Shown here: positions 4,081 to 63,925 of the stretch, piece after piece
How positions within the stretch are numbered: the stretch's first letter is position 1
Layout of the letters: each line of letters opens with the position of its first letter
Assembly (NCBI GenBank): GCA_030390025.1
Contig: CM059432.1
Coordinates: forward strand, 71,548,001-71,612,000
DNA: 64,000 nucleotides
Direction of reading: 5' to 3'
Origin: Squalus acanthias
Taxonomy: Eukaryota
Program-made: the position numbers and the translations under genes
The notes under the pieces: model-generated
Database searches by the model: none
What the model saw: only the letters and a program-made list of their open reading frames with translations
Told to the model about the DNA's origin: nothing

Positions 4081-6104
4081 TGAAGGGATAATTACTAGTC
4101 CTAGCCCCTTTAGGGCTACCCTGGATCAAGCGTATTCCTCAGATGTTCACTTTCAACTAAAGTTTGAGGTAGCCAAATCCTAAAGACACTTAATTGGGTC
4201 TAAAGGTCCGGACTATCTCACCTAAAGGAAAGGAACAACCTGAAAATGTTACCATCCTCCAGATAACACTTTTAATAAGTTTAGCTAGACTGTAACGTTC
4301 CGGATATTATGAGGGTCCGGAAAACTCCCCCAGAATTCTGCAACTCCTCACCAAAGAGCGTACAGAGATTGAGTTTGCGAGTTTGATACAGAAGTATTAT
4401 GTGAGACAATTCTAAAAATATATAGATTTATTAAAGAACCGACATGTAATTTACAGTTGGTCAGTCAATCACAACATTTACAGTTCCAAAAAGAGAAAGC
4501 TTTATAATCTTATTATCAGATATCCTATTCTCAAATCTTAACTTCGCTAAAGTTTTACAGTTCTTAGTCTTATTCAGGATATCCACCAAAATCAAATACA
4601 GTACCTTGATCCCTGAGATACAAAGGGGTAGAAATTAGGTCGCGCCCCATTTGGGGCGCAAATATCGTCTGGACGCAAATATTAGCGCCTGGCGCTAATT
4701 ATCGGCACTGACTGGAAACTTCACTTTTACCGCCCCGGGAGGTGAGTGGAGCGCTAAATCAGGCGCTGCACACCTGTCTTAAGGCGCAAAGGCCAAGGAG
4801 TGAGGCGCTACCTCAGAGCGCTGGCGAAGCTCATGTAATGTCAGTCAGCAATGGAACACACACACAATGGCACGGGCCAGTTCTTAAAGGGGATGGTTAA
4901 TCTTGCTTTCCATCCACATCCTGTTCATTGCAGCCTTGAATCTCGGCCTGGAGAGACTTGCACATCAAATGTGCTGGAAAGAACAATGGAGAGTACCAGG
5001 CAAAGAGCTCAGAGTGCAGCTCCCACAGTCTCTGCTAAATCGATACAAGGAATGGCAAATCAAAATGAACCTGCAAAGTGCTGCTCAGTACCCAAAACTC
5101 CTTCACACAATGTTGAATCTCTCCAGAAGTCTCTCCCTCTCTCTCTCAGAATGCGTAGTTCAAAAATGCCACCAACAATAAAAGACAGGAAGAGGCCCCC
5201 TTTAAATAGCGCCCCCCCCAGCCCCACAGCGATTGATAGCGTTCCAGTCTTCTGGTCGTTGGATGCGCCAGGCGGTAAGGCAGGGGGCGCCACTCAATTT
5301 CCGCTCCGGGGCGCCACAAGGGCATTGCACCATGGAATGACGTCACAATCTGCGCGCGCAGGTGGTCGCAGCGGTAAGTTTTAGCGCCGCCGCACAATGT
5401 CAACTTAAGTTCCCGAGCGGCGCAAACATCACTGCGCCCGGGCCTTAGCGGCTTTGCGCCCCATTAGCGCCCTCTTAAGGCGCTAACGGGAGGCGCAACC
5501 AACTGAATTTTTACCCCAAAGAGTTGTAGACTTACAGAGCTGCCTCTGAAGCCTGAGAATCGCTTTGCCCCTTTACAGCGAGTCTATTATCCCATTTGAG
5601 AGCTCAATATTTATACCCTTTTCCAGTGGTATCCCTTTAAGGTTTTCTGCTGATGTAAGCTAATTATCTCTAGTCATTTCTCTGCTGACTTCTGCAATTC
5701 TTAGTCACCTCAGTTGGTAGCAATACAGACTCGTGTCTCCTCTAGGTGTTCCAAGCTTACCATAAAAAACGGTGTAACAGCAGGTGCATTTTATTTGATG
5801 TCATTTTTACTAAGGCCTTCTGTTTGTGCCTCTTTACGAAGTGTGAATTAGAACACCTTGTACAGGGTGTACCATTGTCTGCTCCCAAAGATTCAGACCG
5901 TCGGGAGCCTTTAACCTTCTGTTTCAATAAGGTTATTGATTCAGTGTCAACAACTATCTTATCTCTATTGCCAGAATGCTACTACACCTTTTTCAGTTAA
6001 GTTTCCAGATTTCCAAACCCAGTTTGTCATGTTTTAATAAGGCCAGAATTCTTTCACAGAATGGTGTATTTTTCTGAATAGATTATATGGCTTATTCCTT
6101 CACA
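4081..6104 (-). mobile_element. Solo LTR (~1.13 kb after removing the nested MITE)
   Basis: TG...CA ends with short inverted repeat (TGAAGGGATAA / TTATTCCTTCA). 4-bp TSD GCCT at 4077-4080 and 6105-6108. Minus-strand TATAAA (5610-5615) lies upstream of AATAAA (4427-4432). Confidence 0.75.
4625..5517 (-). mobile_element. Young Harbinger MITE (internal-deletion derivative, 893 bp)
   Basis: TIRs GGGGTAGAAATT / AATTTTTACCCC are identical to those of 57879-62191. Flanked by AAA on both sides. Keeps the first codons of the Myb gene (MESTRQRAQ) fused to the transposase start region at 5012/5013. Confidence 0.92.
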
Positions 6105-8199: not shown

Positions 8200-9223
8200 A
8201 TGCAAGACTGAGAGGCCTTACCCACCTAGGGTCTTCTCCTATCGCCACCTAAGCCAGGAGCAGTGTATTCAGCAGCTCCGCTTCACCAAGGAGATGGTCA
8301 CAGAACTCTGCCACGTCTTGGAACCAGATCTGCAGCCTCGGAGCAGGGTGACGGCGGCACTGCCAGTTGCCCTCAAGGTCACCGTGGGCCTGAAATTTTT
8401 TCACCAGTGGATCCTTCCAGGCTGGAATAGGCGTGTAACTAACATCTCCCAGTTCGCCGTCCATTGTTGAATACGTGAGGCCACAGAGGCTCTGTAATCC
8501 AGGAGAAGGGACTTCATTGTCTTCTCTCTGAAGAGAGAGAAGCAGGAGCAGCGTGAATGTGGCTTTGCCAGGATATCGGGTTTTCTCATGGTGCAGGGCG
8601 CTATTGACTGCACACACGTGGCTTTACGGGCACCGCATATCAATGCTGAGATGTACCGTAACCGCAAAGGCTACCACTCTCTTAAAGTGCAGTTGGTTTG
8701 CGACCACGCCCAGCACATCATCATGGTGAATGCCCGGTATCCTGGCAACAGTCATGATGCCTTCATTCTGCACCAGTCCGGTGTGCCAGCAATCTTCCAG
8801 CCACCACATTGAACCCGAGGGTGGCTGTCCGGAGACAAGGGCTATCCACTCTACACCTGGCTGATGAATCCCCTCCACAAACCCACCACTCGTGGACAGC
8901 AATTATATAATGAGAGCCATGCTGCCAAGAGGAACCTCATCGAGCAGACCATTGGGGTGCTCAAGCAACGGTTCCATTGCCTTGACCACTCGGGAAGAAC
9001 TCTCCAGTACTCACAGGAGAGGGAGTCCCAATTCGTGGTAGTCTGCTGCATCCTCCACAAATTGGCCATAATGAGGGCGCAGTCCTTGCCACCACGGGTT
9101 CCGTCACCACCTCAGGAGGAGGAGGAAGAGGAAGAGGAGGAGGAGGAAGGGAGGAGGCAGGCTGCAAATTCCTGTTCCGGATGGGCTGTCTGTGAGCGCA
9201 TCATCAGTCTCTGCTTCCCCTAA
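8200..9223 (+). pseudogene. Harbinger (HARBI1-like) DDE transposase pseudogene
   Basis: Fragments [53 protein letters not shown] and a poly-E tail are split over several frames with in-frame stops. Confidence 0.9.
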
Positions 9224-9394
9224 ATGAAACCCCAGATCCCCTTTGCTCAACACTTCCCCACGTTACCATCCCTCTGTCACAGAACATCACAGGGTCCTCT
9301 TGGGCACAATGCTGAAAACAAACATTCCAAACATAATTTATAAATGATTAATTCCAATATTAAATTACAAAAGTCAACTAATTACCCTTGCGCA

Positions 9395-10790
9395 TTCCCT
9401 TAGTGTCTGTCTTTCGTGTTCCTTTGCCTATTCTAGTGCTCCTACGCAGTGCTCCCTCAGTGGCTGTAGCATGGCTGGTGGAAGGCTACTGACTTTCTGT
9501 GGGGGGAGACTGCAGATGGCCTTGCAGAACGACCTCGAGCAGCTCTGTGTCTAGAAGGCCCGGCTGTAGACTGCACCACCTCGGCATGTGTGGCAGCAGT
9601 CTGGGCTGGCTGGCTGACAGGCAACCGCAAGGGAACTGGCGGAGTGGCAGTGGTGGAAGTACGAATGCTGTCATCCTGAGAGAGGACAGCAGGTTTGTGC
9701 TCCACGGAACCCCTCCCACTCCCCTGAGGCGGCGCCTCAGCATTCCTAGCCATCTGTTGGAGGACAGATTGCTGGGCTGCTGTGAGATCCTGCAAGCCCC
9801 TTTCCACACTCGTAAACCCAGCCACGATGGCAGCAGTCTGATCTTGCACGGCAGCTGTCTGATCTTGCGTGGCAGCAAGCTGAGGCTGCATGACAGAAGT
9901 CTAAGCACTGCAGCACTCAGACGTTGGGACTCTTCCGCTTGTGCTGCAATGGAAGCTGCGACATTGCCCATCACACCCAGCATCATGGTTGGGTCCACAA
10001 GTGCCCTAATGGAGTTGCCCATTACTTTCATCCTGAAAATCATGGACTCCGCGCAATGCCCCGTGAAATGTTAGTGCTGAACTCCTCCATGCTCCTTGAC
10101 ACTGACAAGAGGCTCTCTGGCAGGCCTACCATTGCACCAAGCATTTCTGTGTGCATGCCCATCACCATACTTCTGAAGGCCACCTCATCGAAGTCCTCAT
10201 CTGAGTCTTGTGCAGCAGAACTCGCATGCGACCTCGCCCTCCGGGGAGCTGGCACCTGCGCTACCCTTTCCCCCTGCCCTGGCTGCAGCCCACTCGTGCC
10301 TGTAACTCAACATGTGCAGATCCCGCCTCTATACTACCTTCTAAAGTTTGCGCAGTGCCATTTTATGAGCTGGTCCCTGGGAGTGTCAGATCGAGTGACG
10401 GTGCCTCTTCTTCACCATCAATAAACTCCTTTACTTCTTCAGGCTGGGCTGGTGGCAGTTCTTGGGTATCTGAAAGGAGAAAGGCACAAAGGTCGGGTTG
10501 TGGTAAGGGGAGGTGGGAAAGTAAGATGTGCATGTTTACACCATCAGCAGCTTGTAAGTGAGAAGAAATTGTGGGAGGAGGGGGAAGTGAGATGTGAGAA
10601 AAAGGATTAGGTATGAACATACTGTCATCATCAATGCTTTCAGCCTTGCCGATCACCACGGCCTCAATGATGACCCCACCAATGATCTCCAGCACAGTCT
10701 CCTCCAGCTGGGTCAGGTTTGGCAGCCTTGCTTGCCCCCATCTGTTTGTTCCTGCTCGTGCCGGCTGTGAGCCACCTTGGCCTGCAAGAG
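9395..10790 (-). pseudogene. Harbinger Myb/SANT partner gene, exons 2-3, decayed; SANT exon absent
   Basis: Peptides LTQLEETVLEIIG, GMHTEMLGAM, AVLSQDDSI and AGPSRHRAARGR match the partner genes at 55691-57506 and 59845-61830. Convergent with the transposase. Confidence 0.8.
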
Positions 10791-10904
10791 AGAGGGAGTG
10801 TGTCAGTGAGTGTGGCGCAATGTGTTTGGGTGATGTAGCTGTCATGGTTGAATAGCTGGCAGTGTGTGCAAGCTGAGAGATGTGGGTGTGAAAGGTCTAT
10901 ATAC

Positions 10905-49147: not shown

Positions 49148-50038
49148 GGGGGAAAAATGTGGTTGCTTTGTGCCTCACGTTAGCGCCCTGAGAGGACGCT
49201 AATGAGGTGCAAAGCAACTAGCGCCCGGGCGCGACGATGTTTGCGCCGCTCACAAAATTGACCAGACATTTTGCAGCGGCGCTAAACACTACCGCCATGA
49301 TCTCCTGCGCCCGCAGATCGTGACGTCAGTCGAGCGTGCAATGCCCCGGTAGTGCCCTGAACCGGATATTGAGTGGCACCCCCTGCCTTACTGCCTGCCG
49401 CTAGCAATGACAGGTTGAGGGGAACGTTTTGCAGTCAGGAAGGGACTGGGGGAGCGCTATTTAAAGGCGGCCGCTTCCTGTCTTTTTTTGTCAGTGACAT
49501 TTTTGCACCACGCATTCTGAGAGAGAGAGAGAGACTTCTGGAGAGATTCAATGCTGTGTGAAGGAGTTTTGGGTACTGAGCAGCTCTTTGCAGGTTCATT
49601 TTGATTTGACCTTCCTTGCATCGATTTAGAAGAGACTTTGGGGGCTGCACTCTGAGCTCTTTCCCTGGGCCTCTACATTGTTCTTTCCAGCAGACTTGAT
49701 GTACAGGTCACTCCAGGCCGAGATTCAAGGCTGCAATGAGCAGGGTGTGGATGGAGAGCAAGATCGACCCTCCCCTTTAAGAACTGGCCGGCGTCATTGT
49801 GTCTGTGTTCCATTGCTGACTGACATTACATGAGCTTCGCCAGCGCTCTGAGGTAGCGCCTCGCTCCTCGGCGTTAGCGCCTTAAGAGAGGTGTGTAGCA
49901 CCTGATTTAGCGCTCCAATCACCTCCAGGGGCGATAGAAGCCAAGTCTGCAGTCGGAGGTGATAATTAGCGCCAGGCGCTAAACTTTGCGCCCGGCCGAT
50001 AATTGCGCCCCAAATGGGGTGATACCGAATTTCTCCCC
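49148..50038 (+). mobile_element. Harbinger MITE (same deletion junction as 4625-5517)
   Basis: GGGGGAAAAAT ... AATTTCTCCCC, flanked by TTT on both sides. Termini match 53255-57867. Junction GCTGCACT|CTGAGC at ~49651. Confidence 0.9.
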
Positions 50039-52284: not shown

Positions 52285-54441
52285 ACCTACATATGGTGGA
52301 AAGGGGGGAAGTGGAGCACATAGGATGGGGAACCAAAGGCACAGTTGGAAGAGGAGAGTTTTCAGAAGGTTTTTAAAGCAGGAAAGGATGTAGTACAGCA
52401 TAGGGAACTGAGTAGAGAGTTGCTGAAGGCAGCAGCGCAATGACTGGACAAGCACTCCCAAATGGTGGAGTACAGGGACCGAGGGGCAAGGAGAAGGGTG
52501 GTATTAGAGGAATGCAGGGTTCTCAGGCAGGCAGAGATAACTAAGGTAATGGGATAAAGCAATGATGAGATTAGAAAACAAGGGTGGGAATTTTGAAATA
52601 AACATGCTGAAGCATGGAGGCCAATGGAGCTTGTGGAGGGCCTGCCTGCGGCGAGGGTCACACATTCCTCCCGCAACCCGGGACTTAAAATACTGGCCGG
52701 CATGAATATGGTGTGAAGTTGGAAGGCAGGACACTGCCTCTACTTCAACCACACCTTGTTCTGTTTGGGCATGGGGGTTAGAATCGGCCCTTTTGTTTGT
52801 TTTAATGCAGAGAATATATTGCCTGGGACAGTGCTGGAGAGCATACTGAATGTTAAGATTCCATTTGTGCCTTAGTCCCTTGTAAGCTATTGTTCCTGTT
52901 TATTTGTTTCTCCTTGCTTTATTTGCTTTCTATAAAGGGATTCCCTGTCTCCTAGCAGGGAATGAATTTTGCAGGGAACACATCAATAATGTTTGGTTAA
53001 TCTAACCTAATCCTTGTAGAAAGGCTGGGACTTTGTCCAAAACAAAGGCAGCAAAGTGCTGTTCATTGGAGATAAACAAACTGGCACAATGTTCATATGA
53101 CTCAGGAATATGACACCACATGCAGCATCAGCAATCTGCAATGTCACAAGGGCATTTCCATATGTATTCTCAGAACATGATTTCCTTTGCACCGATAAAG
53201 TTAGGTTAGACTTCTAGGGGGAGAAATTCGGTATAACCCCGTTTGGGGCACTAAGGGGAAAAATTCGGTTGATTAGCGCCTCCCGTTTGCGCCCTAAGAG
53301 CAACTAGCGCCCGTGCGCGGCAATGTTTGCGCAACTCGCAAAATTGACCAGAGATTTTGCGGCGGCGCTAAACTCTATCGCCACGAACTCCTGCGCCCAC
53401 AAATCGTGACGTCAGTCGAGCGTGCAACACCCCTGTGGCGCCCCGGACCGGATATTGAGTGGTGCCCCCTTCCTTTCCGCCTGCTGCTAGCAACGACAGG
53501 GAGAGTGAAAGGTTTTGCAGTCGGGAAGGGGCTCGGGGAGCGCTATTTAAAGGCGGCCTCTTCCTGCCTTTTTTTGTGGGAGACATTTTTGCACCACTCA
53601 CTCTGAGAGAGAGAGAGCGATTCTGAGAGAGAGAGAGAGAGACTTCTGGAGAGATTCAACGCTGTGTGAAGTAGTTTTGGCTACTGAGCAGCACTTTGCA
53701 GGTTCTTTTGGATTTGATCTTCATTGCTTCGATTGTCAAGGGACTATGGGGGCTGCACTGATTCGGGGCGTCGTCCTGCGCCTGCAGAATCAGAGGCATC
53801 AGAGACGCAGAGAGAGAGTGGCAAACATAGCCAGAGAGAGGAGGGCCAACAGGCCTCTGCACAGGAAACCTTACCCTCCCAGGGTAGTCCGGGAACAATT
53901 CTCCTACATTCATTTGTCTGAGGAGCAGTGTTTGCGCAGGCTGCGCTTCAGCAAGGAGGTGGTCACTGAGCTCTGCCACCTGCTGCAGCCAGATCTGCAG
54001 CCTCGACTGAGGATCAGGACGTCTCTGTCGGTGGCAGTGAAGGTCACAGTGGCTCTGAATTTTTATGCCACCGGCTTCTTTCAAGCAGCTACTGGGGACA
54101 TCACCAATATCTCCCAGTTCACGGTCCATTGCTGTATCCGGGAGGTGACAAATGCCCTCTATAAAAGGAGACGCCAGTACATCTCTTTCCCGATGACCCG
54201 GGCCAAACAACATGAACGTGCATTTGACTTTGCAAGGATAGCGGGCTTCCCCATGGTGCAGGGCGCCATTGCCTGCATGCATGTGACATTTTCTGAAACC
54301 GCAAGGGCTACCACTCCTTAAATGTCCAGTTGGTCTGTGACCACAGCCAGCTGATACTCGCCATCAATGCCCGCTATCCTGGCAACAGCCATGATACTTT
54401 CATCCTGCGCCAGACTGGTGTGCCAGACCTTTTCCAAGCAC

Positions 54442-55069
54442 ACTGAGACAACGTATGAACGGACACCGCGCAACAATCGCCAGGCAGGATTGTTACCTCC
54501 CAGTTGGGGAACACTTCAGCAGTCAAGGACATTCAGCCTCGGATCTGCGGGTTAGCGTTCTCCAAGGCGGCCTTCGAGACACACGACAACGCAAAATCAT
54601 CGAGCAGAAACTGATAGCCAAGTTCCGCACCCATGAGAACGGCCTCAACCGGGATCTCGGTTTCATGTCACGCTACAGGACGTGACTAGAGTCGAGGCTA
54701 GAGTCCAGACTAGAGTCGTCGTTGTCTTGTTCACAGATGTGATTTCCAGTTTTAAAAAAAAAGTAAAAAGCTTAACTGCAGACTGCAGCATTTGACACGT
54801 TGGACCCCCTGTGACCCCACCTCATTGTCTTAGCTGTATTCTGCTGTGTCTTTGATGTAATGCCTCCCTGACGGATTGTATCTCTGCAGACACATTGTCC
54901 TCTGTCTATATATGCTTTGTAACTGATTCGTAGTCCCTCACTGTACCTGACGAAGGAGCAGCGCTCCGAAAGCTCATCATTTCAAATAAAACTGTTGGAC
55001 TATAACCTGGTGTTGTGTGACTTCTCATTTTTGTCCACCCCAGTCCAACACCGGCATCTCCGCATCATG
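54442..55069 (+). mobile_element. Penelope-like retroelement 3' fragment (GIY-YIG endonuclease C-terminus and terminal repeat)
   Basis: LRQRMNGHR...VGEHF...GH...RKIIEQKLI.KF.T...GLNRDLG. TATA-like site ~54905, hammerhead motif, AATAAA 54985-54990. Confidence 0.88.
54943..54980 (+). ncRNA. Minimal hammerhead ribozyme motif (stem I degenerate)
   Basis: CUGACGA-A-GGAGC-AGC-GCUCC-GAAA-GC-UC, predicted cleavage after C54975. Confidence 0.7.
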
Positions 55070-55690
55070 GCCACTACCAGGAACATCATTGAGCAGACGA
55101 TCGGCGTGCTCAAGCAACGGTTCCGCTGTCTGGACCACTCAGGAGGAGCCCTGCAGTACTCTCCTGAGCGAGTCTCCCTCTTCATAGTTGTGTGCTGCAT
55201 TCTTCTTAACCTGGCAATCCTCAGGACCCAGCCAATGCCACCAGGCATTGGTGCACCACCGGAGGAGGCGGAGGAGGCGGAAGAGGATGATCAGCAGCAG
55301 CATCAAGGCAGGAGGGAGGCCCACAATGTTGAAACTGCAAGGGCCGTCCATCAATGGCTGATAACAAGCCGCTTCTAGGCCCCTACTGAGAAGATGGCTT
55401 CTGGCATGGAGAACAACATGATGGAAAGCAATCCGCAACCCCTATAGCTGGCCAAGGCAGCAATGATTCCAAAGGCCAAACCTGTGCATTTTGAATACAA
55501 CAACCTTTTTATTTTACAAACTCTGTGTATGTCATTTATTCATGACAAACTAATAGAAACAAACACAACAAATCATTAATTTACATAACTGGTTCTCACA
55601 AGCTGGAGATAATGGCCAAAACACTAAACAAAAGTTATCAGACGAACCTCGGCCTTTAATAAAAACATTCCCAACATTTCTTGAGACCTT

Positions 55691-57506
55691 CTACTTTTTG
55701 CCCTTTGAGGGTGATCTCCATCCCTTGCGCACTTCCGCCCTTCCCACCCTACTGCTCCTCCATAATGGGGCCCCAGTGGCTGCAGCAAAGCTGGCGGAAG
55801 GCTGCTGATTGTCAGATCCTGAGACTACAGATGCCCTTGAAGGACGCCCTCGACCAGCTCTGGGCCTGGAGGGCCCGGCTGCAGACTGCACCAACTCTGT
55901 ATGGGCGGCTGTGTTGCAGGCGGTGGCAAGTGCAATGGGAAGTGACAGTGGTGGGAGCAGGAATGCTGTCATCCTGAGAGAGGACAGCACCTCCCTGCTC
56001 GACCGACACACTGGTGATCCCACGGGGCAGCACCTCAGCATCCGGAGCAATCTGCTCGAGCACAGATTGCTGGCCTGCTGCAGCGCCGTGAGAGCCCCAG
56101 GGCAATGTGGCCGAACCAGCGACGATGACAGCAGTCAGTGCTTGCGTTGCCTCAAACTGAGACTGCATGAGAGCAGTCTGAGATTGGATCACAGCAGCCA
56201 GTAACTGAATTGCAGCACTAAGCAGTTGCGTTGCATCCGCCTGTGCTGCAGCGGACTGCTCCACACTCCTTGCCAGTCCATCAATGCTTTCGGGCACCCT
56301 TCCCATTGCACCCATGAACTCAGTGTGCATGTTCACTGCCTGGGTGTTCATTTCAGCGATGAGCCACTCCTCCTCTGCGTCCAGTGCAGCAGGACTCGCT
56401 GGCCTGCTCTCCCTCCGGGGAGAAGGCCCCCGAGCTTCCCTACCCCCATCGCGTTGCTGCAGCCCGCTGGGTCCCGGAGCTTCACCCTCATCAGACCCTT
56501 CTGCCCTGCTCCCCTCCAGGGAAGACGTGGTCCCTGTGTGGGCATGGGCTTCCTCGGGAGAGGGTGGCACTGAGGTTCTGGCTTCCTCTTCCTCCTCGCC
56601 TGCGACTGCGCTCCCACTGGCTGGTTGAGGGCCCGAGAGTCTCCTCAGCTGGTGAATCACCATCTGAAAGCAGGGAGGTACAAGAGTGGCTTTAGCGTGA
56701 GGACAGGGGGGCAGTAAGGGAGCAAGGTCTGGAGCAATTTAGTCAGTTGGATTGAAAGTGTAAAAGGCTTGTGTTGTGAGGGATAAGTGGAGTGAGAGAG
56801 GAGAGAAAGCTGATGACCTTACCATTGCTGTCCCGAACAGGGTCGGCCTCTTCAGGAGCGACGGGACCAATCACCCGGCTTGCCACAATCCTGTGGACGT
56901 GCGCCTCAAGATCGCTGAGGGGTTGCAGCTGAGGCAGCCCTCCACCCGTCCGTTGCTGCTGCCGCCTGTTATGAAATAGCTTGGCCTGCAAGGAAAAGGA
57001 CGGCGTCTGAGTAAATATGCAGCCATGTGCTTACCTGATGTGCCTCCCATAGTTGAATAGCCCTTAATGTATGCTGCCAGGTGCTTGTCTGATGTGCCTC
57101 CCATAGTTGAACAGCCCTTAATGCATGCAAGGTGTGGAATGTGCGTGTGTGTTTTATGAGATGGCCATAGGTCTTGGATGAGTGTTGGGCATTGGGGTTT
57201 TTACACCCTCTGGCCATAGAGTGAGGTTGAGATGGAGAGATGGAGTGGTATTGAAAAGCAGCCACTCACCCTGACCACCCGAGTGAGGTCGTTGAACTTT
57301 TTCTGACATTGTGTGTGGGTCCTGGGCACCATGCTCCTGGAGGAGACGTGCTGAGCCACCTCCCTCCACACTCTTCTATAGTCGCGGGGCAATGGCCTCC
57401 TGCCACTCTCTGGGTACAGTATTGATCTTTGGTGCTCCACTGCGCCAACCAGAGCCACCAAGGCCCGGTCGCTGAAGCGCTGAGCTTGTTCCCTGGCCCT
57501 CTCCAT
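55691..57506 (-). pseudogene. Myb/SANT partner gene of element 2 (exons 57506-57270, 56985-56823, 56663-55691)
   Basis: GT-AG sites and exon sizes (237, 163 nt) are identical to element 1. 4-bp insertion near 56640 and a deletion near 55935 frameshift exon 3. Confidence 0.85.
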
Positions 57507-58050
57507 ATTCCTTTGCAGCAGCTTTGAGGTTGAGGTCTCTCCAGGCCGAGATTCAAGGCTGCAATGAGCAGGTGGTGGCTGGAGAGCAAGATCGACCCTC
57601 CCCTTTAAGAACTGGCCGGCACCAGTGTGGCTGTGTTCCATTGCTAACTGACATCACCTGAGCTTCGCCCGCGCTCTGAGTTAGCGCTTCGCTCCTCGAA
57701 CTTTGCGCCTTAAGACAGGTGTGCAGTGCCTGGTTTAGCGCTGCAATCACCTCCAGGGACGAAAGAAGCCAAGTTTGTAGTCGGAGGCGATAATTAGCGG
57801 CAGGCGCTAAACTTTGCACCCAGCCGATAATTGCGCCCCAAACGGGGCGATACTGAATTTTTCCCCCTAAAACTTTAAGGGGTAAAAATTCACTTGGTTG
57901 CGCCTCCCGTTAGCGCCTTAAGAGGGCTCTAATGGGGCGTTAAGCCGCTAACGCCCGGGCGCAGCGCTGTTTGCGCCGCTCGAGAACTTAACTTGAGATT
58001 GTGCGGCGGCGCTAAAACTTACCGCTGCGACCACCTGCGCGCGCAGATTG

Positions 58051-58195
58051 TGACGTCATTCCATGGTGCAACGCCCTTGGGGCGCCCCGGAGCGGAAATT
58101 GAGTGGCGCCCCCTGCCTTACCGCCTGGCTCTTCCAACGACCGGAAGACTGGAACGTTATCAATCGGTGTGGGGCTGGGGGGGGCGCTATTTCAA
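58051..58195 (+). promoter_or_regulatory. Putative transposase promoter (CRE, ETS-like, TATA-like)
   Basis: TGACGTCA 58051-58058, CGGAAAT ~58093, TATTTCAA 58188-58195. CRE and TATTTAAA are conserved at 53407/53544, 49321/49458 and 5338/5201. Confidence 0.55.
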
Positions 58196-58389
58196 GGGGG
58201 CCTCTTCCTGTCTTTTTCTGTGGTCGACATTTATGCACCACTCGTTCTGAGAGAGAGAGAGAGATTCGGGGAGAGAGAGAGAGAGACTTCTACATTGACT
58301 CAACGCTTTGTGAGGTAGTTTTGCCTATTCATCCTAACTTTGTTGCTACTTTAGTTGCTGTACCTCATTACTTTTCTGGCAAAGAGAAT

Positions 58390-59550
58390 ATGGGGGCTGC
58401 AATGATTGGGGGCGTCGTCCTGCTCCAGCTGAATCGGAGGATACAGAGACGCAGACAGAGAGTGGCAATGATGGCCAGACGGAGGAGGGCCATCAGGCGC
58501 ATGTACAGGAGAGCTTACCCTCCCAGGGTATATCGTGAACAGCTCTCCTACATCCATATGTCCGAGGAGCTGTGTTTGCGGAGGCTGCGATTCAGCAAGG
58601 AGGTGGTCACTGAGCTCTGCCACCTGCTGCAGCCAGATCTGCAGCCTCAGCTGAGGTCCAGGACGTCTCTGTCGGTGGCAGTGAAGGTCACAGTGGCTTT
58701 GAACTTCTACGCCACTGGCTCATTCCAAGCTGCTGCTGGGGACCTCGCCAATATCTCCCAGTTTGCGGTGCATCGCTGCATCCGTCAGGTCACCAATGCC
58801 CTCTTCAGAAGGAGACGAGACTTCATCTCTTTCCCTATGACCCCAGACAAGCAGCGTGACCGTGCTCTGGGCTTTGCGAGGGTAGCGGGCTTCCCCATGG
58901 TGCAGGGCGCCATTGACTGCACGCATGTGGCTTTGCGTGCTCCGCGAGAGAATGCAGAGGAATTCAGGAACAGGAAGGGGTTCCATTCCTTGAATGTGCA
59001 GTTGGTCTGTGACCACAGACAGGTGATACTCGCTGTCAATGCCCACTATCCGGGCAGCTGCCACGATGCTTTCATCCTGCGCCAGACTACTGTGGCAGAA
59101 GTTTTCGAGGCACCGCATCAGCCAGTTGGTTGGCTTCTGGGGGACAAGGGGTACGCATTGAGCACCTGGCTGATGACACCGCTCCGTACGTCAAACACCC
59201 CTGCTGAGCTGCGGTACAATGAAAGCCATCAAGCAACCAGGAACATTATTGAGCGCACAATCGGCGTGCTGAAACAACGGTTCCGCTGTCTGGACCATTC
59301 CGGAGGAGCCCTGCAGTACTCGCCTGAGCAAGTTTCGAACTTCGTAGTCGTGTGCTGCATGTTGCACAACATGGCAATCCTCAGGACCCAGCCAATGCCA
59401 CCAGGCCTTGTAGCACCACCAGAGGAGGAGGAGGAAGAGGAGGAAGAGGACGAGGACGATGATCATCAGCAGCACCAAGGCGGGAGGGCGGCCCACAATG
59501 GTCAAACTGCAAGGGCCGTCCGTCAACGACTAATAGCAAGGCGCTTCTAG
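58390..59550 (+). CDS. Intact Harbinger DDE transposase (HARBI1-like, 386 aa)
   Basis: Uninterrupted ORF from the conserved ATG (MGAA). HTH region, [35 protein letters not shown], acidic tail. Confidence 0.93.
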   Translation: MGAAMIGGVVLLQLNRRIQRRRQRVAMMARRRRAIRRMYRRAYPPRVYREQLSYIHMSEELCLRRLRFSKEVVTELCHLLQPDLQPQLRSRTSLSVAVKVTVALNFYATGSFQAAAGDLANISQFAVHRCIRQVTNALFRRRRDFISFPMTPDKQRDRALGFARVAGFPMVQGAIDCTHVALRAPRENAEEFRNRKGFHSLNVQLVCDHRQVILAVNAHYPGSCHDAFILRQTTVAEVFEAPHQPVGWLLGDKGYALSTWLMTPLRTSNTPAELRYNESHQATRNIIERTIGVLKQRFRCLDHSGGALQYSPEQVSNFVVVCCMLHNMAILRTQPMPPGLVAPPEEEEEEEEEDEDDDHQQHQGGRAAHNGQTARAVRQRLIARRF

Positions 59551-59844
59551 GGCCCCTGCCATTGCTACAAACACTAATCAACCCAGCACGCAACCCCTAA
59601 GCCGGCCAAGGCACCAATAATTCCAAGCACCAGCCATGTATATTTTGAAAACAGAAACTTATTTATTTTACAAACTCTGTGTGTGTCAATTCCTCATGAC
59701 AAACTCATAGAAATAAACACAAAAAAACAGTCAATAACATAACTGGTTCTCACAACCTGGAGATAATGTCCAAAACACTAAACAAAAGTTGGACCACGAC
59801 CCTCGGCCTTTAATAAAAAAATGACCAGCATTTTGGCACACCTC

Positions 59845-61830
59845 CTACTTTTTGCCCTTCGAGGGTGATCTCCTTCCCTTGCGCACTTCCCCCCTTCCAA
59901 CCCTACTGCTCCTCCGTAATGGGACCTCAGTGGCTGCAGCAAGGCTGGTGGAAGGCTGCTGCTCGTCAGACCCTGACACTGCAGATGCCCCTGAAGGACG
60001 GCCTCGACCACTTCTGGGCCTGGAGGGCCCGGCTGCAGACTGCACCAACTCTGCATGGGCGGCAGCAGTCTGTCCTACAGGCGGTGGCAAGTGCAGTGGA
60101 GAAGTGACAGTGTTGGCAGTAGGAATGCTGTCATCGTGAGAGAGGACAGCAACTCCCTGCTCGCCCGACACACTGGCACTCCCACGGGGCAGCACTTCAG
60201 CATCCGGAGCAATCTGCCGGAGAACAGATTGCTGGCATGCTGCGGCGCGGTGACAGCCCCGGGGACATGTGCACGAACCATCGAGGTTGGCAGCAGTCTG
60301 TGCTCGCGTGGCCTCCATCTGAGTCTGTATGAGAGCAGTCAGAGGTGGGATCACGGCAGCCAGTGACTGAATTGCAGCACTAAGCGTTAGTGTGGCATCC
60401 GCCTGTGCTACAGCGAAGTGCTCCACACTCCTTGCCAGTGACTCAATGCATTCAGGCACCCTTCCCACTGCACCCATGAGCTCAGTTTGCATGCCCACCG
60501 CCTGGCTGTTCATTTCTGCAATCAGCCGCTCCTCCTCTGCGTCCATTGCAGTAGGAGTGTCTGGCATACTCTCCCTCTGGGGAGAAGGCCCCCGTTCTTC
60601 CCTACCCCCCCCCATGGCGTTGCTGCAGCCCACTGGGTCCTGGAGCTTCACCATCATCAGCCCCTTCCCCCCTGCTCCCCTCCGGGGAAGGCGTGTTCCC
60701 AGTGTGGGCATGGGCTTCCTCGGGAGAGGGTGGCACTGATGCTCCGGCTTCCTCTTCCTCCTCAGCTGCAGCATCACTCCCAGTGGCAGCTTGAGGGCCC
60801 GTCTCCTCAGCTGGTGAATCAGCATCTGAAAGCAGGGAGGTACAAGAGTGGCTTTAGCGTGAGGACAGGGTGGCAGTAAGGGAGGAATAAGTGCAGCGAG
60901 TTAGCAAGTTGGATTGAAAGTGTCAAAGGCTGGTATTGTGAGGGACAAGTGGAAGGACAGAGGACAAAAAGGTGATGACCTTACCATTGCTGTCCACAAC
61001 GGGGTCGGCGTCTCCAGTGGCGACGGGACCGATCACCCGGCTTGCCACAATCCTGTGGACGCGCTCCTCCAGATCGCTGAGGGGTTGCAGCTGAAGCCGC
61101 CCTCCACCCGTCCGTTGCTGCTGTCTCCGATTATGAGCCAGCTTAGCCTGCAAGAAAAAGGACAGCATCTGAGTAAATATACAGCCATGGTCTTGCCTGA
61201 TGTGCCTCCCATAGGTGAATAGCCCTTACAATATACAGCCATGGTCTTGCCTGATGTGCCTCCCATAGGTGAATAGCCCTTACAATATACAGCCATGGTC
61301 TTGCCTGATGTGCCTCCCATAGGTGAATAGCCCTTACAATATACAGCCATGGTCTTGCCTGATGTGCCTCCCATAGGTGATTAGCCCTTACAATATACAG
61401 CCATGGTCTTGCCTGATGTGCCTCCCATAGGTGAATAGCCCTTACTGTATGCAAAGTGTAGAATGTGTGTGTGTGTTTGATGAAAGGGCCATAGGTGTTG
61501 GATGAGTGTTGTGCATTGGGGTTTTAAGACCCTCTGGCCATAGAGTGAGGTTGAGATGGAGGGATGGAGAGGTATTGAGAAAAAGCCACTCACCCTGACG
61601 ACCCGAGTGAGGTCGTTGAACTTTTTGCGGCATTGAACATGGGTCCTGGGCACCATGCTCCTGGAGGAGACGCTCTGAGCCACCTCCCTCCACACTCTTC
61701 TGAACTCGCGTGGCAAAGGCCTCCTGCCACTCTCCGGGAACAGCATACATCGTCTGCGCTCCACTGCGTCAACCAGAGCATCCAAGGCCCGCTCGGTGAA
61801 GCGATGAGCGCGTTCTCTCACCCTCTCCAT
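59845..61830 (-). CDS. Myb/SANT (trihelix) partner gene, 3 exons (61830-61594, 61147-60985, 60825-59845); one frameshift in a G9 run
   Basis: MERVRERAHRFTERALDALVDAV...W.EVA...RTHVQCRKKFNDL. Canonical GTGAGT/GTAAG donors and YAG acceptors with compatible phases. The spliced frame hits TAG at 60604-60602. Confidence 0.85.
61177..61446. repeat. Intronic minisatellite, 5 x 54 bp
   Basis: Unit ATATACAGCCATGGTCTTGCCTGATGTGCCTCCCATAGGTGAATAGCCCTTACA, near-perfect. Two diverged units at 57015-57120. Confidence 0.97.
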
Positions 61831-63717
61831 GCTTGGCAGCAAAATGGATTACAGGTCTCTCCAGGCTGAGATTCAAGGCTGCAATGAGCAGGGTGTGGCT
61901 GGGGAGCAAGTGGCCCCCCCCCCCCGCTTTAAGAAGTGGCCGGCGCCAGTGTGTCTGTGTTCCCTCGCTAACTGGCAGCAGCTGCGCTGCGCTCGTGCGC
62001 TGAGTTAGCGCCTCACTCCTTGGCCTTTGCGCCTTAAGACAGGTGTGCCGCGCCTGCTTTAGCGCTCCACTCACCTCCCGGGGCGGTAAAAGTGAAGTTT
62101 CCTGTCAGTGCCGATAATTAGCGCCAGGCGCTAATATTTGCGTCCGGACGATATTTGCGCCCCAAATGGGGCGCGACCTAATTTCTACCCCTAAAAGTTG
62201 AAAAATTAGCGCCAGGTGCTAATCAGTCTCACCTACCACAAAATTGAGTTTTAGCGCTCCAAGAGGGAAGTGGAGCACTAAATCAAGCGCTAACCACTTC
62301 TCTTAGGGCGCTAAAGTCTGAGAGCGGGGTAGTAGTGGCAGAGCGCTAAACAATTTCAAGCGTATTGTAAACGCCACTCTTTCATCACAGAGGCTGCTTC
62401 CCTCGCTTAAAGGGAAGGGCCAATGATACTGCACAAGCTAGTTGTCATCACTTCTGTTTTGCAAGGCAACCTGGGCAACTGCCATTACAGCCCTAAAGAC
62501 TTTCACAAAGTGGAGGGCTTGGACATCTTGCACCAATGAAGCATTAAAAACTTTGCACAGACTGGTGCAAATAATAAAGGTTGCACTGGCTGAAAAGCAT
62601 TCCCTTTAATTACCGCTCTCGAAGCGGCCAGCCGAGTTCACTGGCGTTGTCGGCGCAAGGCGATAAAGCACGGGGCGAGAGTCAATTTTCCATCCGGGGC
62701 AATAACGGGGCACTGCACTCTTTATGACGTTACGATCTGCGAGGTGCTAGAGGCCCAGGCGCTAGCGGTAACAGGCACTGAAGTTCACGGGCGTCGCTGC
62801 ATTCACCACGCCCGGCCGCTAACCCATTAACGCCCCCGCCAGGAGCTAACATACCGAATTTCTAGCTCTCTATAGTTTGTGGTGGATGTAAAATGAGAGT
62901 GCATTTTTAATTGAAATGAAGTTGTGCACAAATAATATGCAGATGCATTTTGACATGATTTACGCTGTGAGTTTAAAATCAGAATCACTCACTGACTGAT
63001 GTCCAATTTAGATAATTTCCTTGAATATTTTTATAACTTCAGAGCAGGAACACAATATTGCATTAATAGATGCCCTGCTTTGCCTGTGGTAATATGATTG
63101 TGCTGTGACTTTATTACTGATGAATCACTACAATGGCTATCAGCTATTAATTCTCCTTACAATCTTATATAATAAAATAGATCTTCATGATCTTACTGAA
63201 GGGCATTTCTCTACAAAATGACTATGTGGAATTTGTTGCCATCATGTATTTTATGTAGAAAGTTTTATTCAGTGATGTCCTGAATAGGGAACACTCTCCT
63301 CGTCTTACTTTATCACATAAAAGATTATGTTTGTCAGTCCAACTGTTTTCAGCTATTTCATTGGTCCATGTTAATTACTAGACTGGTTTTCAAGGACCCA
63401 TCAGATGCAAGTGCTGCACTCTCCAGCCTCTGCTTTGCTCCCCTACACATCTGTGTTCTATTCCCTGGACCCACCCATCTTCTGATTTCTGCTCTCCACT
63501 CTGCTGTGCTTCTGTGTTCCATTTCACTGCCTCTGCTGTGCTCTGCTCATCGCCCTTCCAGCCCAGTCGAGCCCAGATGCCACACTCTCACACCCCAACT
63601 CCCAGTTTCATTCCCAGCCAGGCTGGAGGGAAAGTCATTGATGAAGCAGCTGAAGATGGTTGGGCGCAGGATGCTGCTCTGAGGAACTCCTGCAGCAATG
63701 CCCTGGGGATGAGATGG

Positions 63718-63925
63718 TTAAATCTGAGGCTGCCAACCTCATTAAAATATTTAAATTACCAACCTGCCTCCTGAGAGTGGGTTGGCTGCCCGCCCCTTGT
63801 TCCGCCATGGTTAAACCCGGATGTGGGTGGGTTGGATGTGGGTTGGGATCAGGGTTCAGATTTTTTAAACTTTAACATCTGTTCTGACACCAACCCACCT
63901 GTTTTTGGCTGTTAAAATTCAGCTC
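63718..63925. mobile_element. Right end of a 3412-6400 family MITE
   Basis: Matches 6195-6400 (CCTCATTAAAATAT, AAACCCGGA..TGGG, AAAATTC). Confidence 0.6.

Follow-up and report, generated by a model that had tools for sequence, protein, structure and literature searches.

Two Harbinger transposons 8 bp apart in the end of a related MITE in Squalus acanthias: an extended target consensus and a likely local effect of resident ends

Architecture of the nested locus

The window, a 64,000-nucleotide stretch of Squalus acanthias contig CM059432.1, contains two distinct full-length Harbinger elements, E1 and E2, located 8 bp apart within the end of an older Harbinger MITE and each flanked by its own TAA duplication (Table 1). 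Both carry a DDE transposase of the Harbinger/IS5-like type, a second gene with a Myb/SANT-like domain (Myb_DNA-bind_5), short TIRs and a 3-bp TSD that is mostly TWA, and both share the extended palindromic target preference of PIF/Harbinger elements. The transposase gene of E1 is broken, with DDE_Tnp_4 detected by domain search on its 3' piece (E 6.5e-10), and the left TIR lacks one G. The translation of the 635-bp insert in this gene resembles what we take to be the GIY-YIG end of Penelope-like elements. E2 shares 98-99% identity with further full-length copies; judged by identity to its nearest relatives, E1 is likely the older of the two insertions.

Table 1. Features of the nested locus, in window coordinates.
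Feature	Position	Strand or side	Remarks
Host MITE TSD, CTA	53214-53216	left flank	Flank comparison
Host MITE left end	53217..53251	+	TIR and first GGGGC[G/A]CTAA motif; aligned to uninterrupted copies
Site 1, left TAA duplication of E1	53252..53254	+	Empty-site comparison
E1, full-length broken Harbinger, 4,613 bp	53255..57867	+	88-91% identity to nearest fetched relatives
E1 transposase gene	53746..55378	+	Broken by 28-bp deletion near 54289 and nested insert; DDE_Tnp_4 on 3' piece
Nested repeat fragment in E1, 635 bp	54441..55075	+	Interrupts E1 transposase gene
E1 Myb-like gene	55812..57506	-	Split into exons, borders inferred; Myb_DNA-bind_5, E 1.8e-7
Right TAA TSD of E1	57868-57870	+	First part of TAA-AACTT-TAA junction, 57868..57878
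Host spacer AACTT, 5 bp	57871-57875	+	Between E1 and E2 TSDs
Site 2, left TAA TSD of E2	57876-57878	+	Last part of junction
E2, full-length Harbinger, 4,313 bp	57879..62191	+	Young family
E2 transposase	58390..59550	+	Open frame, 386 aa; DDE_Tnp_4, E 3.4e-39
E2 Myb-like gene	59845..61830	-	Three inferred exons; Myb_DNA-bind_5, E 4.5e-9
54-bp tandem repeat	61176-61453		Inside inferred intron of E2 Myb-like gene
Right TAA duplication of E2	62192..62194	+	Empty-site comparison
Remainder of host MITE	62195..62869	+	Begins AAGTTGAAAAA-TTAGCGCC-A-GGTGCTAA; degenerate right TIR
CTA after host MITE right TIR	62870-62872	right flank	Flank comparison

The host is Tourist-like: about 720 bp long and non-coding, with Harbinger-type TIRs, a 3-bp TSD and many copies, 181 of which share an exact 19-mer by genome match. 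Its CTA duplication has one extra base on the right side, and its first motif at this locus has decayed at a CpG to GGGGCAC. The left end of the host is similar to the right end of E1 and E2. As the initial annotation had described, these two are oriented alike and opposite to the host.

That annotation also read the locus as two independent insertions into a related MITE end, and this is confirmed by the coordinates and TSDs, which fall at host nt 36-38 (E1) and 44-46 (E2). Excision of both elements with one TAA each yields GGGGCAC-TAA-AACTT-TAA-AAGTTGAAAAATTAGCGCC, and this rebuilt empty site aligns without gaps to uninterrupted host MITE copies elsewhere in the genome, as proposed. At 78-84% identity, E1 and E2 belong to different subfamilies and are not tandem duplicates. 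Examined at 29 other loci, the same MITE end was intact in about 20 and carried an insertion in 6, the remainder being truncated or deleted.

Target consensus and occupancy of the MITE sites

Flanks of 86 and 144 independent insertions gave a consensus target of approximately TWARASWY-[3-bp TSD, mostly TWA/WWW]-RWSTYTWA, and the preferred target genome-wide is a palindrome of ~15-19 bp. Palindromes of 9 bp in plants and 15 bp in vertebrates are reported for PIF/Harbinger elements (PMC2836001, PMC3016246). No other stretch of the host MITE fits the target as well as site 1 (9.8 bits) and site 2 (9.9 bits), which fall in the top 1e-4 of background; the next-best site scores 5.6 bits. The two sites lie 8 bp apart because AACTT is both the right flank of site 1 and the left flank of site 2. 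Palindrome symmetry was rejected as an additional factor, as 52 full sites showed no excess of left-right symmetry (2.42 versus 2.44 shuffled).

Site 2 was filled independently in 22 of the 100 listed host MITE copies, by several families of varied sizes and in both orientations, and is a true insertion hot spot. Orientation at 23 site-2 insertions was the same in 11, opposite in 9 and unassigned in 3 (P=0.82), and a same-orientation rule was rejected. Two sister MITEs were compared, the first of which shows that the motifs do not suffice. In one, the motifs and their spacing are the same but C replaces A at -4, leaving no good target, and it was filled in 0/100 copies (P=2.5e-4 against the 22/100 above, tested against ~42 exact-TAA rows). 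The other, with A at -4, was filled in 4/100 copies, or 4/~72 sites against 0.15% predicted; by this comparison A at -4 is required for filling. Where the left flank of a site-1 insertion could be read, the adjacent GGCGCTAA motif was retained in 0/7 cases, although other motif copies persist 20-30 bp away. These insertions occurred in copies mutated toward the target consensus, with A at -2 in 5/7 and A at -4 in 3/7. An intrinsic extended target consensus is the main determinant of landing spots. The initial annotation had overlooked this consensus. The hit rate of the site far above chance and the excess near resident ends agree with its reading, but its view of the motifs finds no support: they do not suffice at the C(-4) sister, and the adjacent one is dispensable at site 1.

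Site 2 is nonetheless filled more often than its sequence predicts: under a strict end pattern, occupancy was 13% versus 1.1% from the motif model (P=1e-10), roughly 10x expectation. The model was well calibrated for the site-2 half-site outside the MITE, with ~3.7e-4 observed versus 5e-4 predicted in a hand calculation. The identical 13-mer palindrome AACTT-TAA-AAGTT was found at 0/32 non-host ends with both flanks read, and ~300 empty sites with this 13-mer are present elsewhere. Part of the 10x excess may come from unmodelled sequence or shape, since the motif model also scatters widely at sites with no resident end (A and B below).

The proposal of homing did not hold. Site-specific DNA transposons, of which Pokey in rDNA is given as an example (PMC10288884), keep most copies in one target, and this class was rejected for the elements here since only ~0.1% of ~72,000 element ends are located at the host site. 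Sampled E2-type ends were at the host site in 0/86 cases; like the other samples of this analysis, these were the earliest matches from the largest contigs and are non-random. A single site of an unrelated repeat contains 666 insertions.

Clustering near resident ends

This unrelated, motif-free repeat carries two target sites, A and B, separated by 30 bp. Site A was filled in 666/7,171 copies (9.3% versus 2-4% predicted), a value biased high by the choice of this site after its repeated appearance in the sample; site B was filled in 4.4% versus 4-5% predicted. Score-matched sites in two further repeats, which we take to be CR1-like and SINE-like, were filled in 0/100 and 0/100 copies; score was the sole criterion for selecting these repeats, of which the SINE-like one is young. 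Both A and B were filled in 30 copies, A only in 60, B only in 56 and neither in 608, giving an odds ratio of 5.4 (P=1.5e-9), or 4.3 after subfamily correction. The doubly filled copies mostly pair different families, and 7/30 pair two E2-type elements. The free flanks of this repeat showed no enrichment to 1.5 kb (1 end in 82 kb), nor did the surroundings of filled control copies show a kb-scale regional signal of open chromatin; at 0.4-5 kb, however, pooled flanks held 8 ends versus 3.5 expected.

Counted per focal end, a second end lay within 400 bp of 10/150 sampled ends versus 1.1 predicted, and the other 140 had no such neighbor. Beyond 400 bp there was 1 neighbor end versus 0.5-0.6 predicted. 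Allowing 5x, the pair clustering weakens to P=0.056. The ~400 bp range is broader than a rigid tether would give. At some loci, element and spacer recur in tandem.

Age complicates the co-filling, as the insertion waves are only slightly younger than the A/B repeat. Roughly one in three empty copies is diverged by no more than 0.7% (9 among the lowest 26 of 30 values); such young copies may have missed some waves, inflating the odds ratio. Filled copies were 1.9% diverged versus 1.7% for empty copies (P=0.13). The E2 and 773-bp waves, at 0.4-1.0%, are younger than most control copies (median 1.4%). The enrichment near resident ends expected of self-tethering is present, with an odds ratio of 4-5 and the 10/150 neighbors above, in line with the initial annotation.

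Target choice and its alternatives

Taken together, the data suggest that the palindromic target sets the landing spots while a resident Harbinger end raises the local rate 3- to 10-fold, a combination that we hold to be probable. A resident end likely draws new insertions locally by a few-fold, and the likeliest cause of this boost is putative tethering by the Myb-like protein or the transposase. The host MITE end offers two overlapping good copies of the preferred palindromic target; divergence points to the order host, then E1, then E2. A Myb-like protein or transposase on resident ends may capture incoming transpososomes of related families, with insertion following at whichever good target is nearest.

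It is also conceivable, if rather unlikely, that sequence alone accounts for the pattern with no role for resident ends. Site 2 would be underrated by a position-by-position model, owing to a flexible TpA step between T- and A-tracts, and co-occupancy would reflect copy age and local chromatin. The ten-fold scatter of observed over predicted values between motif-free sites A and B, the need for A at -4, the dispensable motif at site 1 and the slightly greater divergence of filled control copies are all consistent with this. Against it stand the 0/32 result for the same core outside the MITE, the calibration of the half-site model, the lack of excess symmetry, and the non-significant age difference together with the youth of the E2 and 773-bp waves.

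Local hopping beside a donor, or amplification of host and insert as one unit, could produce the seven pairs of E2-type elements and the tandem loci, but we consider it very improbable: the inserts vary in family, size and orientation, doubly filled copies are mostly of mixed families and E1 and E2 are well diverged. Composite amplification was rejected, as the bodies of filled host copies resemble one another no more (0.83) than do those of empty copies (0.85), with a maximum of 0.94.

The first proposal, in which targeting depends chiefly on a Myb-like protein bound to TTAGCGCC motifs and yields self-targeted safe-harbour arrays, is highly improbable. The 22% occupancy between two motif blocks, the clustering and the Sleeping Beauty precedent (PMC4786924) speak for it, but the host site holds few of all ends, most sampled ends have no near neighbor, the sister with C at -4 bears the motifs and is empty, site-1 hits lose the adjacent one, the 666 insertions lie in a motif-free repeat, and no observation favors a safe harbour. 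An assembly artefact at 57868-57878 is very unlikely, as the TAA pair of each element matches, natural copies agree with the empty site, and sites 1 and 2 are each filled singly at other loci. The junction is also spanned by short contigs drawn from sequencing runs of two studies (57849-57895 with 0 differences, 57841-57895 with 1), even though they extend only 17-27 letters per side, under the 31-letter threshold that no searched contig reached on both sides. Contigs at the left junction, with unique flank, ended at 53245-53249 in both runs, none bridging site 1.

The zebrafish Harbinger3_DR (Sinzelle et al. 2008, as cited in PMC3016246, PMC2836001) has a DDE transposase, a Myb-like ORF1, a 3-bp TSD and a ~15-bp palindromic target, and shares this two-gene arrangement, TSD and palindrome with the elements described here. 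Its flanks, AAACAC...GTCTTT (PMC3016246), are near ARASWY...RWSTYT, but its target center is CWG, whereas here it is mostly TWA/WWW. The available text of these two sources does not mention that resident ends influence where elements insert, in contrast to the excess seen here. Tourist MITE multimers in maize and rice (Jiang and Wessler 2001, summarised in PMC5172404) arose from PIF/Harbinger-type MITEs inserting independently inside other MITEs, and Ditto (PMC5172404) receives many families, as does the host MITE; those cases are from plants, while this one is base-resolved, needs the target consensus and was set against matched control sites. Sleeping Beauty insertions are enriched within ~100 bp of sites its own protein can bind, for which tethering by bound excess protein has been proposed (PMC4786924). 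The enrichment here is likewise near resident ends, where binding is putative, but the Sleeping Beauty data are de novo and concern a one-protein Tc1/mariner element, while ours come from past insertions, across families, of elements with two proteins. IS30, which inserts into hot-spot sequences and beside its own inverted repeats (PMC9333248), offers a parallel to the combination of target sequence and own-end proximity suggested here; it is a bacterial copy-out-paste-in element with IR-IR junctions, whereas insertion here uses a distinct good target, at a distance of 8-400 bp, with normal TSDs. Our literature search, which covered mostly openly accessible main texts, found no study of vertebrate Harbinger insertion beside resident ends, although a binding motif for the Myb-like protein or an analysis of proximity may have been published and missed. 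The smaller proximity effect is here told apart from the sequence preference already known.

The locus provides a base-resolved, measured natural case of a vertebrate DNA transposon accumulating in the ends of its own relatives. Which Harbinger protein chooses the target is an open question (PMC2836001), for which the MITE-end variants (22%, about 5% and 0% filled) and the A/B repeat are natural substrates. If tethering is false, the locus is an ordinary outcome of known target preference; if true, the separate DNA-binding subunit would offer a means of steering insertion. Tentatively, and with somewhat less confidence than in the local effect itself, we suggest that vertebrate Harbingers may choose targets in two ways, by read-out of the palindrome and by capture through a Myb-like protein or transposase on resident ends of any related family. 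Old immobile MITE ends would then serve as sinks, in which a single base can be filled in as many as a fifth of the copies, and clusters of elements would self-nucleate.

The double insertion in the host MITE

E1 and E2 are full-length Harbinger elements inserted in the left end of an older non-autonomous Harbinger MITE (the host) in a 3.7 Gb genome, whose repeats appear shark-like; the window spans C8:71548001-71612000. Removal of both elements with one TAA each was expected to give natural host sequence, and uninterrupted host copies do align gap-free with the reconstructed empty site. Both are ordinary Harbingers; in each, the plus strand bears a DDE_Tnp_4 transposase and the minus strand a Myb-like gene. 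E1 has lost 28 bp and carries a 635-bp nested repeat, both of which break it. E2 matches other full-length copies at 98-99% identity, and its last Myb-like exon points to a pair of compensating frame shifts in this insertion. Because non-CpG divergence falls from 3.4% in the host family to 1.6% in E1-type and 0.4-1.0% in E2-type elements, the likely order of arrival is host, E1, E2. In runs of two studies, short contigs span the central junction (57868-57878), each extending less than 31 letters to either side.

Positions in the window of the double insertion and related features
Feature	Position	Strand	Observation
E1	53255-57867		TAA on both sides
E2	57879-62191		TAA on both sides
Spacer between E1 and E2 TAA duplications			AACTT
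Nested fragment in E1	54441-55075		41 more matches among fetched loci and window; translation presumably GIY-YIG-like
Last Myb-like exon of E2	60600-60830	-	Open; ~70 codons in another frame than E1
893-bp MITE derivative, E2 family	4624-5517	-	In ordinary DNA; own 3-bp duplication
893-bp MITE derivative, E1 family	49149-50038	+	In ordinary DNA; own 3-bp duplication
Older Harbinger	8235-10856		~70% identical to E1/E2 across transposase and Myb regions
GC-rich repeat with central TTAAAACTT-TAA site	63770-63900		Possible further member

Recurrent insertion at site 2

The initial annotation had called this locus a homing site. The general Harbinger end pattern has 72,698 matches (reversed-pattern control, 554) and a single E2-type end 10,469. 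Ends preceded by AACTT-TWA number 253, and 31 of the 100 listed lie in the host as judged by eye. Homing to the host site was ruled out, as that site takes ~0.1% of all ends; among the first 90 E2-type left ends listed on contig 1, 86 are distinct and none of these lies there.

Host copies were sought by exact match to the 19 bases starting at site 2, the TAA target of E2; 181 were found and 100 listed. Among those listed, 22 (window included) have a Harbinger end immediately ahead of the TAA, bearing out the claim that this spot is filled far above chance, and one further copy has an irregular junction. Three listed copies (C2:13442290, C4:26907911, C6:18620778) lack the 8 bases separating the two TAAs, which could reflect TAAAA-repeat slippage or a double insert having been excised cleanly through its outer ends. 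All 22 other filled site-2 loci were fetched, and the host left end with a matching TAA was recovered in 19. Inserts span 455 to 7,035 bp with at least six kinds of end; counting the window, 11 lie one way, 9 the opposite way and 3 are unassigned. Filled host bodies are 83% alike and empty ones 85%, indicating that the insertions are separate events at a recurrent hot spot. Site 1, the target of E1, is less often filled, with 0/100 in one listing and 8 matches genome-wide, 7 of them true junctions.

Insertion position is decided by a palindromic target

Flanks of 86 E2-type ends yield a palindromic consensus: A occupies -4 (counted leftward from the target duplication) in 81-91%, -1 is a pyrimidine, and there is a weak T-W-A at -8 to -6. 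The consensus is close to the Harbinger3_DR target quoted as AAACACCWGGTCTTT in a passage of PMC3016246. According to passages of PMC2836001, plant Harbinger-type targets span 9 bp and vertebrate ones 15 bp, and the protein responsible for target choice is not known. Trained on 144 flanks, none from the host, a weight matrix ranks site 2 first in the MITE (9.9 bits) and site 1 second (9.8), the next scoring 5.6; both are within the top 1e-4 of a 384 kb background. Since one 5-mer fits both the right-flank and left-flank consensus, the 8-bp spacing requires no special cause; octamer tails also contain pairs 8 bp apart (L102, L148).

Two natural controls show that the palindromic target decides insertion position. 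In one sister MITE, which shares the motifs and has a TAA in almost the same place but C at -4, 0/100 copies are filled, ~42 of them with the exact TAA; a sister MITE retaining A at -4 is filled in 4/100. None of the seven site-1 insertions with a readable flank keeps GGCGC-TAA; three have A at -4 and five A at -2, versus about a quarter of copies generally (P=0.03). Mutations that ruin the adjacent motif yet better the target favour insertion at site 1. Another GC-rich palindromic repeat family has repeated insertions at a central TTAAAACTT-TAA site (L232, L238, L243, L249, L341).

Occupancy near resident ends

Near resident ends, occupancy exceeds the palindromic-target prediction. At site 2 the matrix predicts 1.1%, and junctions matching the same strict end pattern number 13/100 (P=1e-10); the A(-4) sister site is filled in 4 of ~72 versus 0.15% predicted. 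Two control sites in unrelated repeats, selected on score only (9.5 and 9.1 bits), are filled in 0/100 each. The site-2 13-mer (AACTT-TAA-AAGTT) is empty outside the MITE ~300 times (185 matches before correction) and occurs at 0/32 non-host ends with both flanks read; 25 more of the 57 examined lack a readable far flank, and several of these ends occupy the corresponding position in sister MITEs. Counting against the site-2 excess, the matrix is loose, since site A in a motif-free repeat is 9.3% filled (666/7,171) versus 2-4% predicted; site B in that repeat is 4.4% filled (108/~2,440) versus 4-5%.

The proposed enrichment near related ends appeared in an unselected sample, where another end lies within 400 bp of 10/150 focal ends versus 1.1 predicted (five within 60 bp; P=0.056 once a five-fold matrix error is allowed, one pair belonging to a tandemly repeated unit of element and spacer) and at 0.4-1.5 kb from 1/150 versus 0.5-0.6. 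Three Harbinger insertions fall within ~350 bp (L154) and ~100 bp (L512) of original sequence.

A cleaner comparison comes from sites A and B, which are separated by 30 bp of identical sequence and so permit a two-by-two count: both filled 30, only A 60, only B 56, neither 608 (odds ratio 5.4, P=1.5e-9), with B-empty copies from one subfamily and B-filled from all. The ratio is 4.9 without three possible duplicates and 4.3 with subfamily correction. On average, empty and filled copies are of like age (1.7% and 1.9% divergence), and the empty ones predate the E2 and 773-bp waves; roughly one in three of the empty copies, however, is so young that some waves may have passed it by, and the true neighbour effect may therefore be closer to 3. 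In free flanks out to 1.5 kb, a single end was found in the 82 kb next to singly filled copies and a single end in the 89 kb next to empty ones. Tandem arrays in which an entire MITE is repeated together with the 33-bp A-B spacer (L127/L368-369, L496-497) perhaps come from unequal crossing-over between elements at A and B.

We propose that proteins sitting on resident ends would capture incoming complexes, because ORF1 binds element ends and transposase (passages of PMC2836001 and PMC9179366), TTAGCGCC/GGCGCTAA blocks are common to all families here, and Sleeping Beauty insertions are enriched within 100 bp of its binding motif (passages of PMC4786924). Local chromatin opening by the resident end, instead of protein capture, would give the same counts. 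Local hopping is argued against by the double-filled A/B copies, only 7/30 of which pair two E2-type elements; each element has its own target duplication wherever both ends were recovered.

MITEs struck by other MITEs are already known in rice and maize (passages of PMC5172404), as is dual targeting in IS30 (abstract of PMC9333248). Passages of PMC2213677, PMC10288884, PMC13668399 and PMC12595863 describe nesting or target duplications and no proximity effect. New here are a hot spot resolved to the single base, accompanied by natural negative controls, and a neighbour effect measured at 3- to 5-fold.
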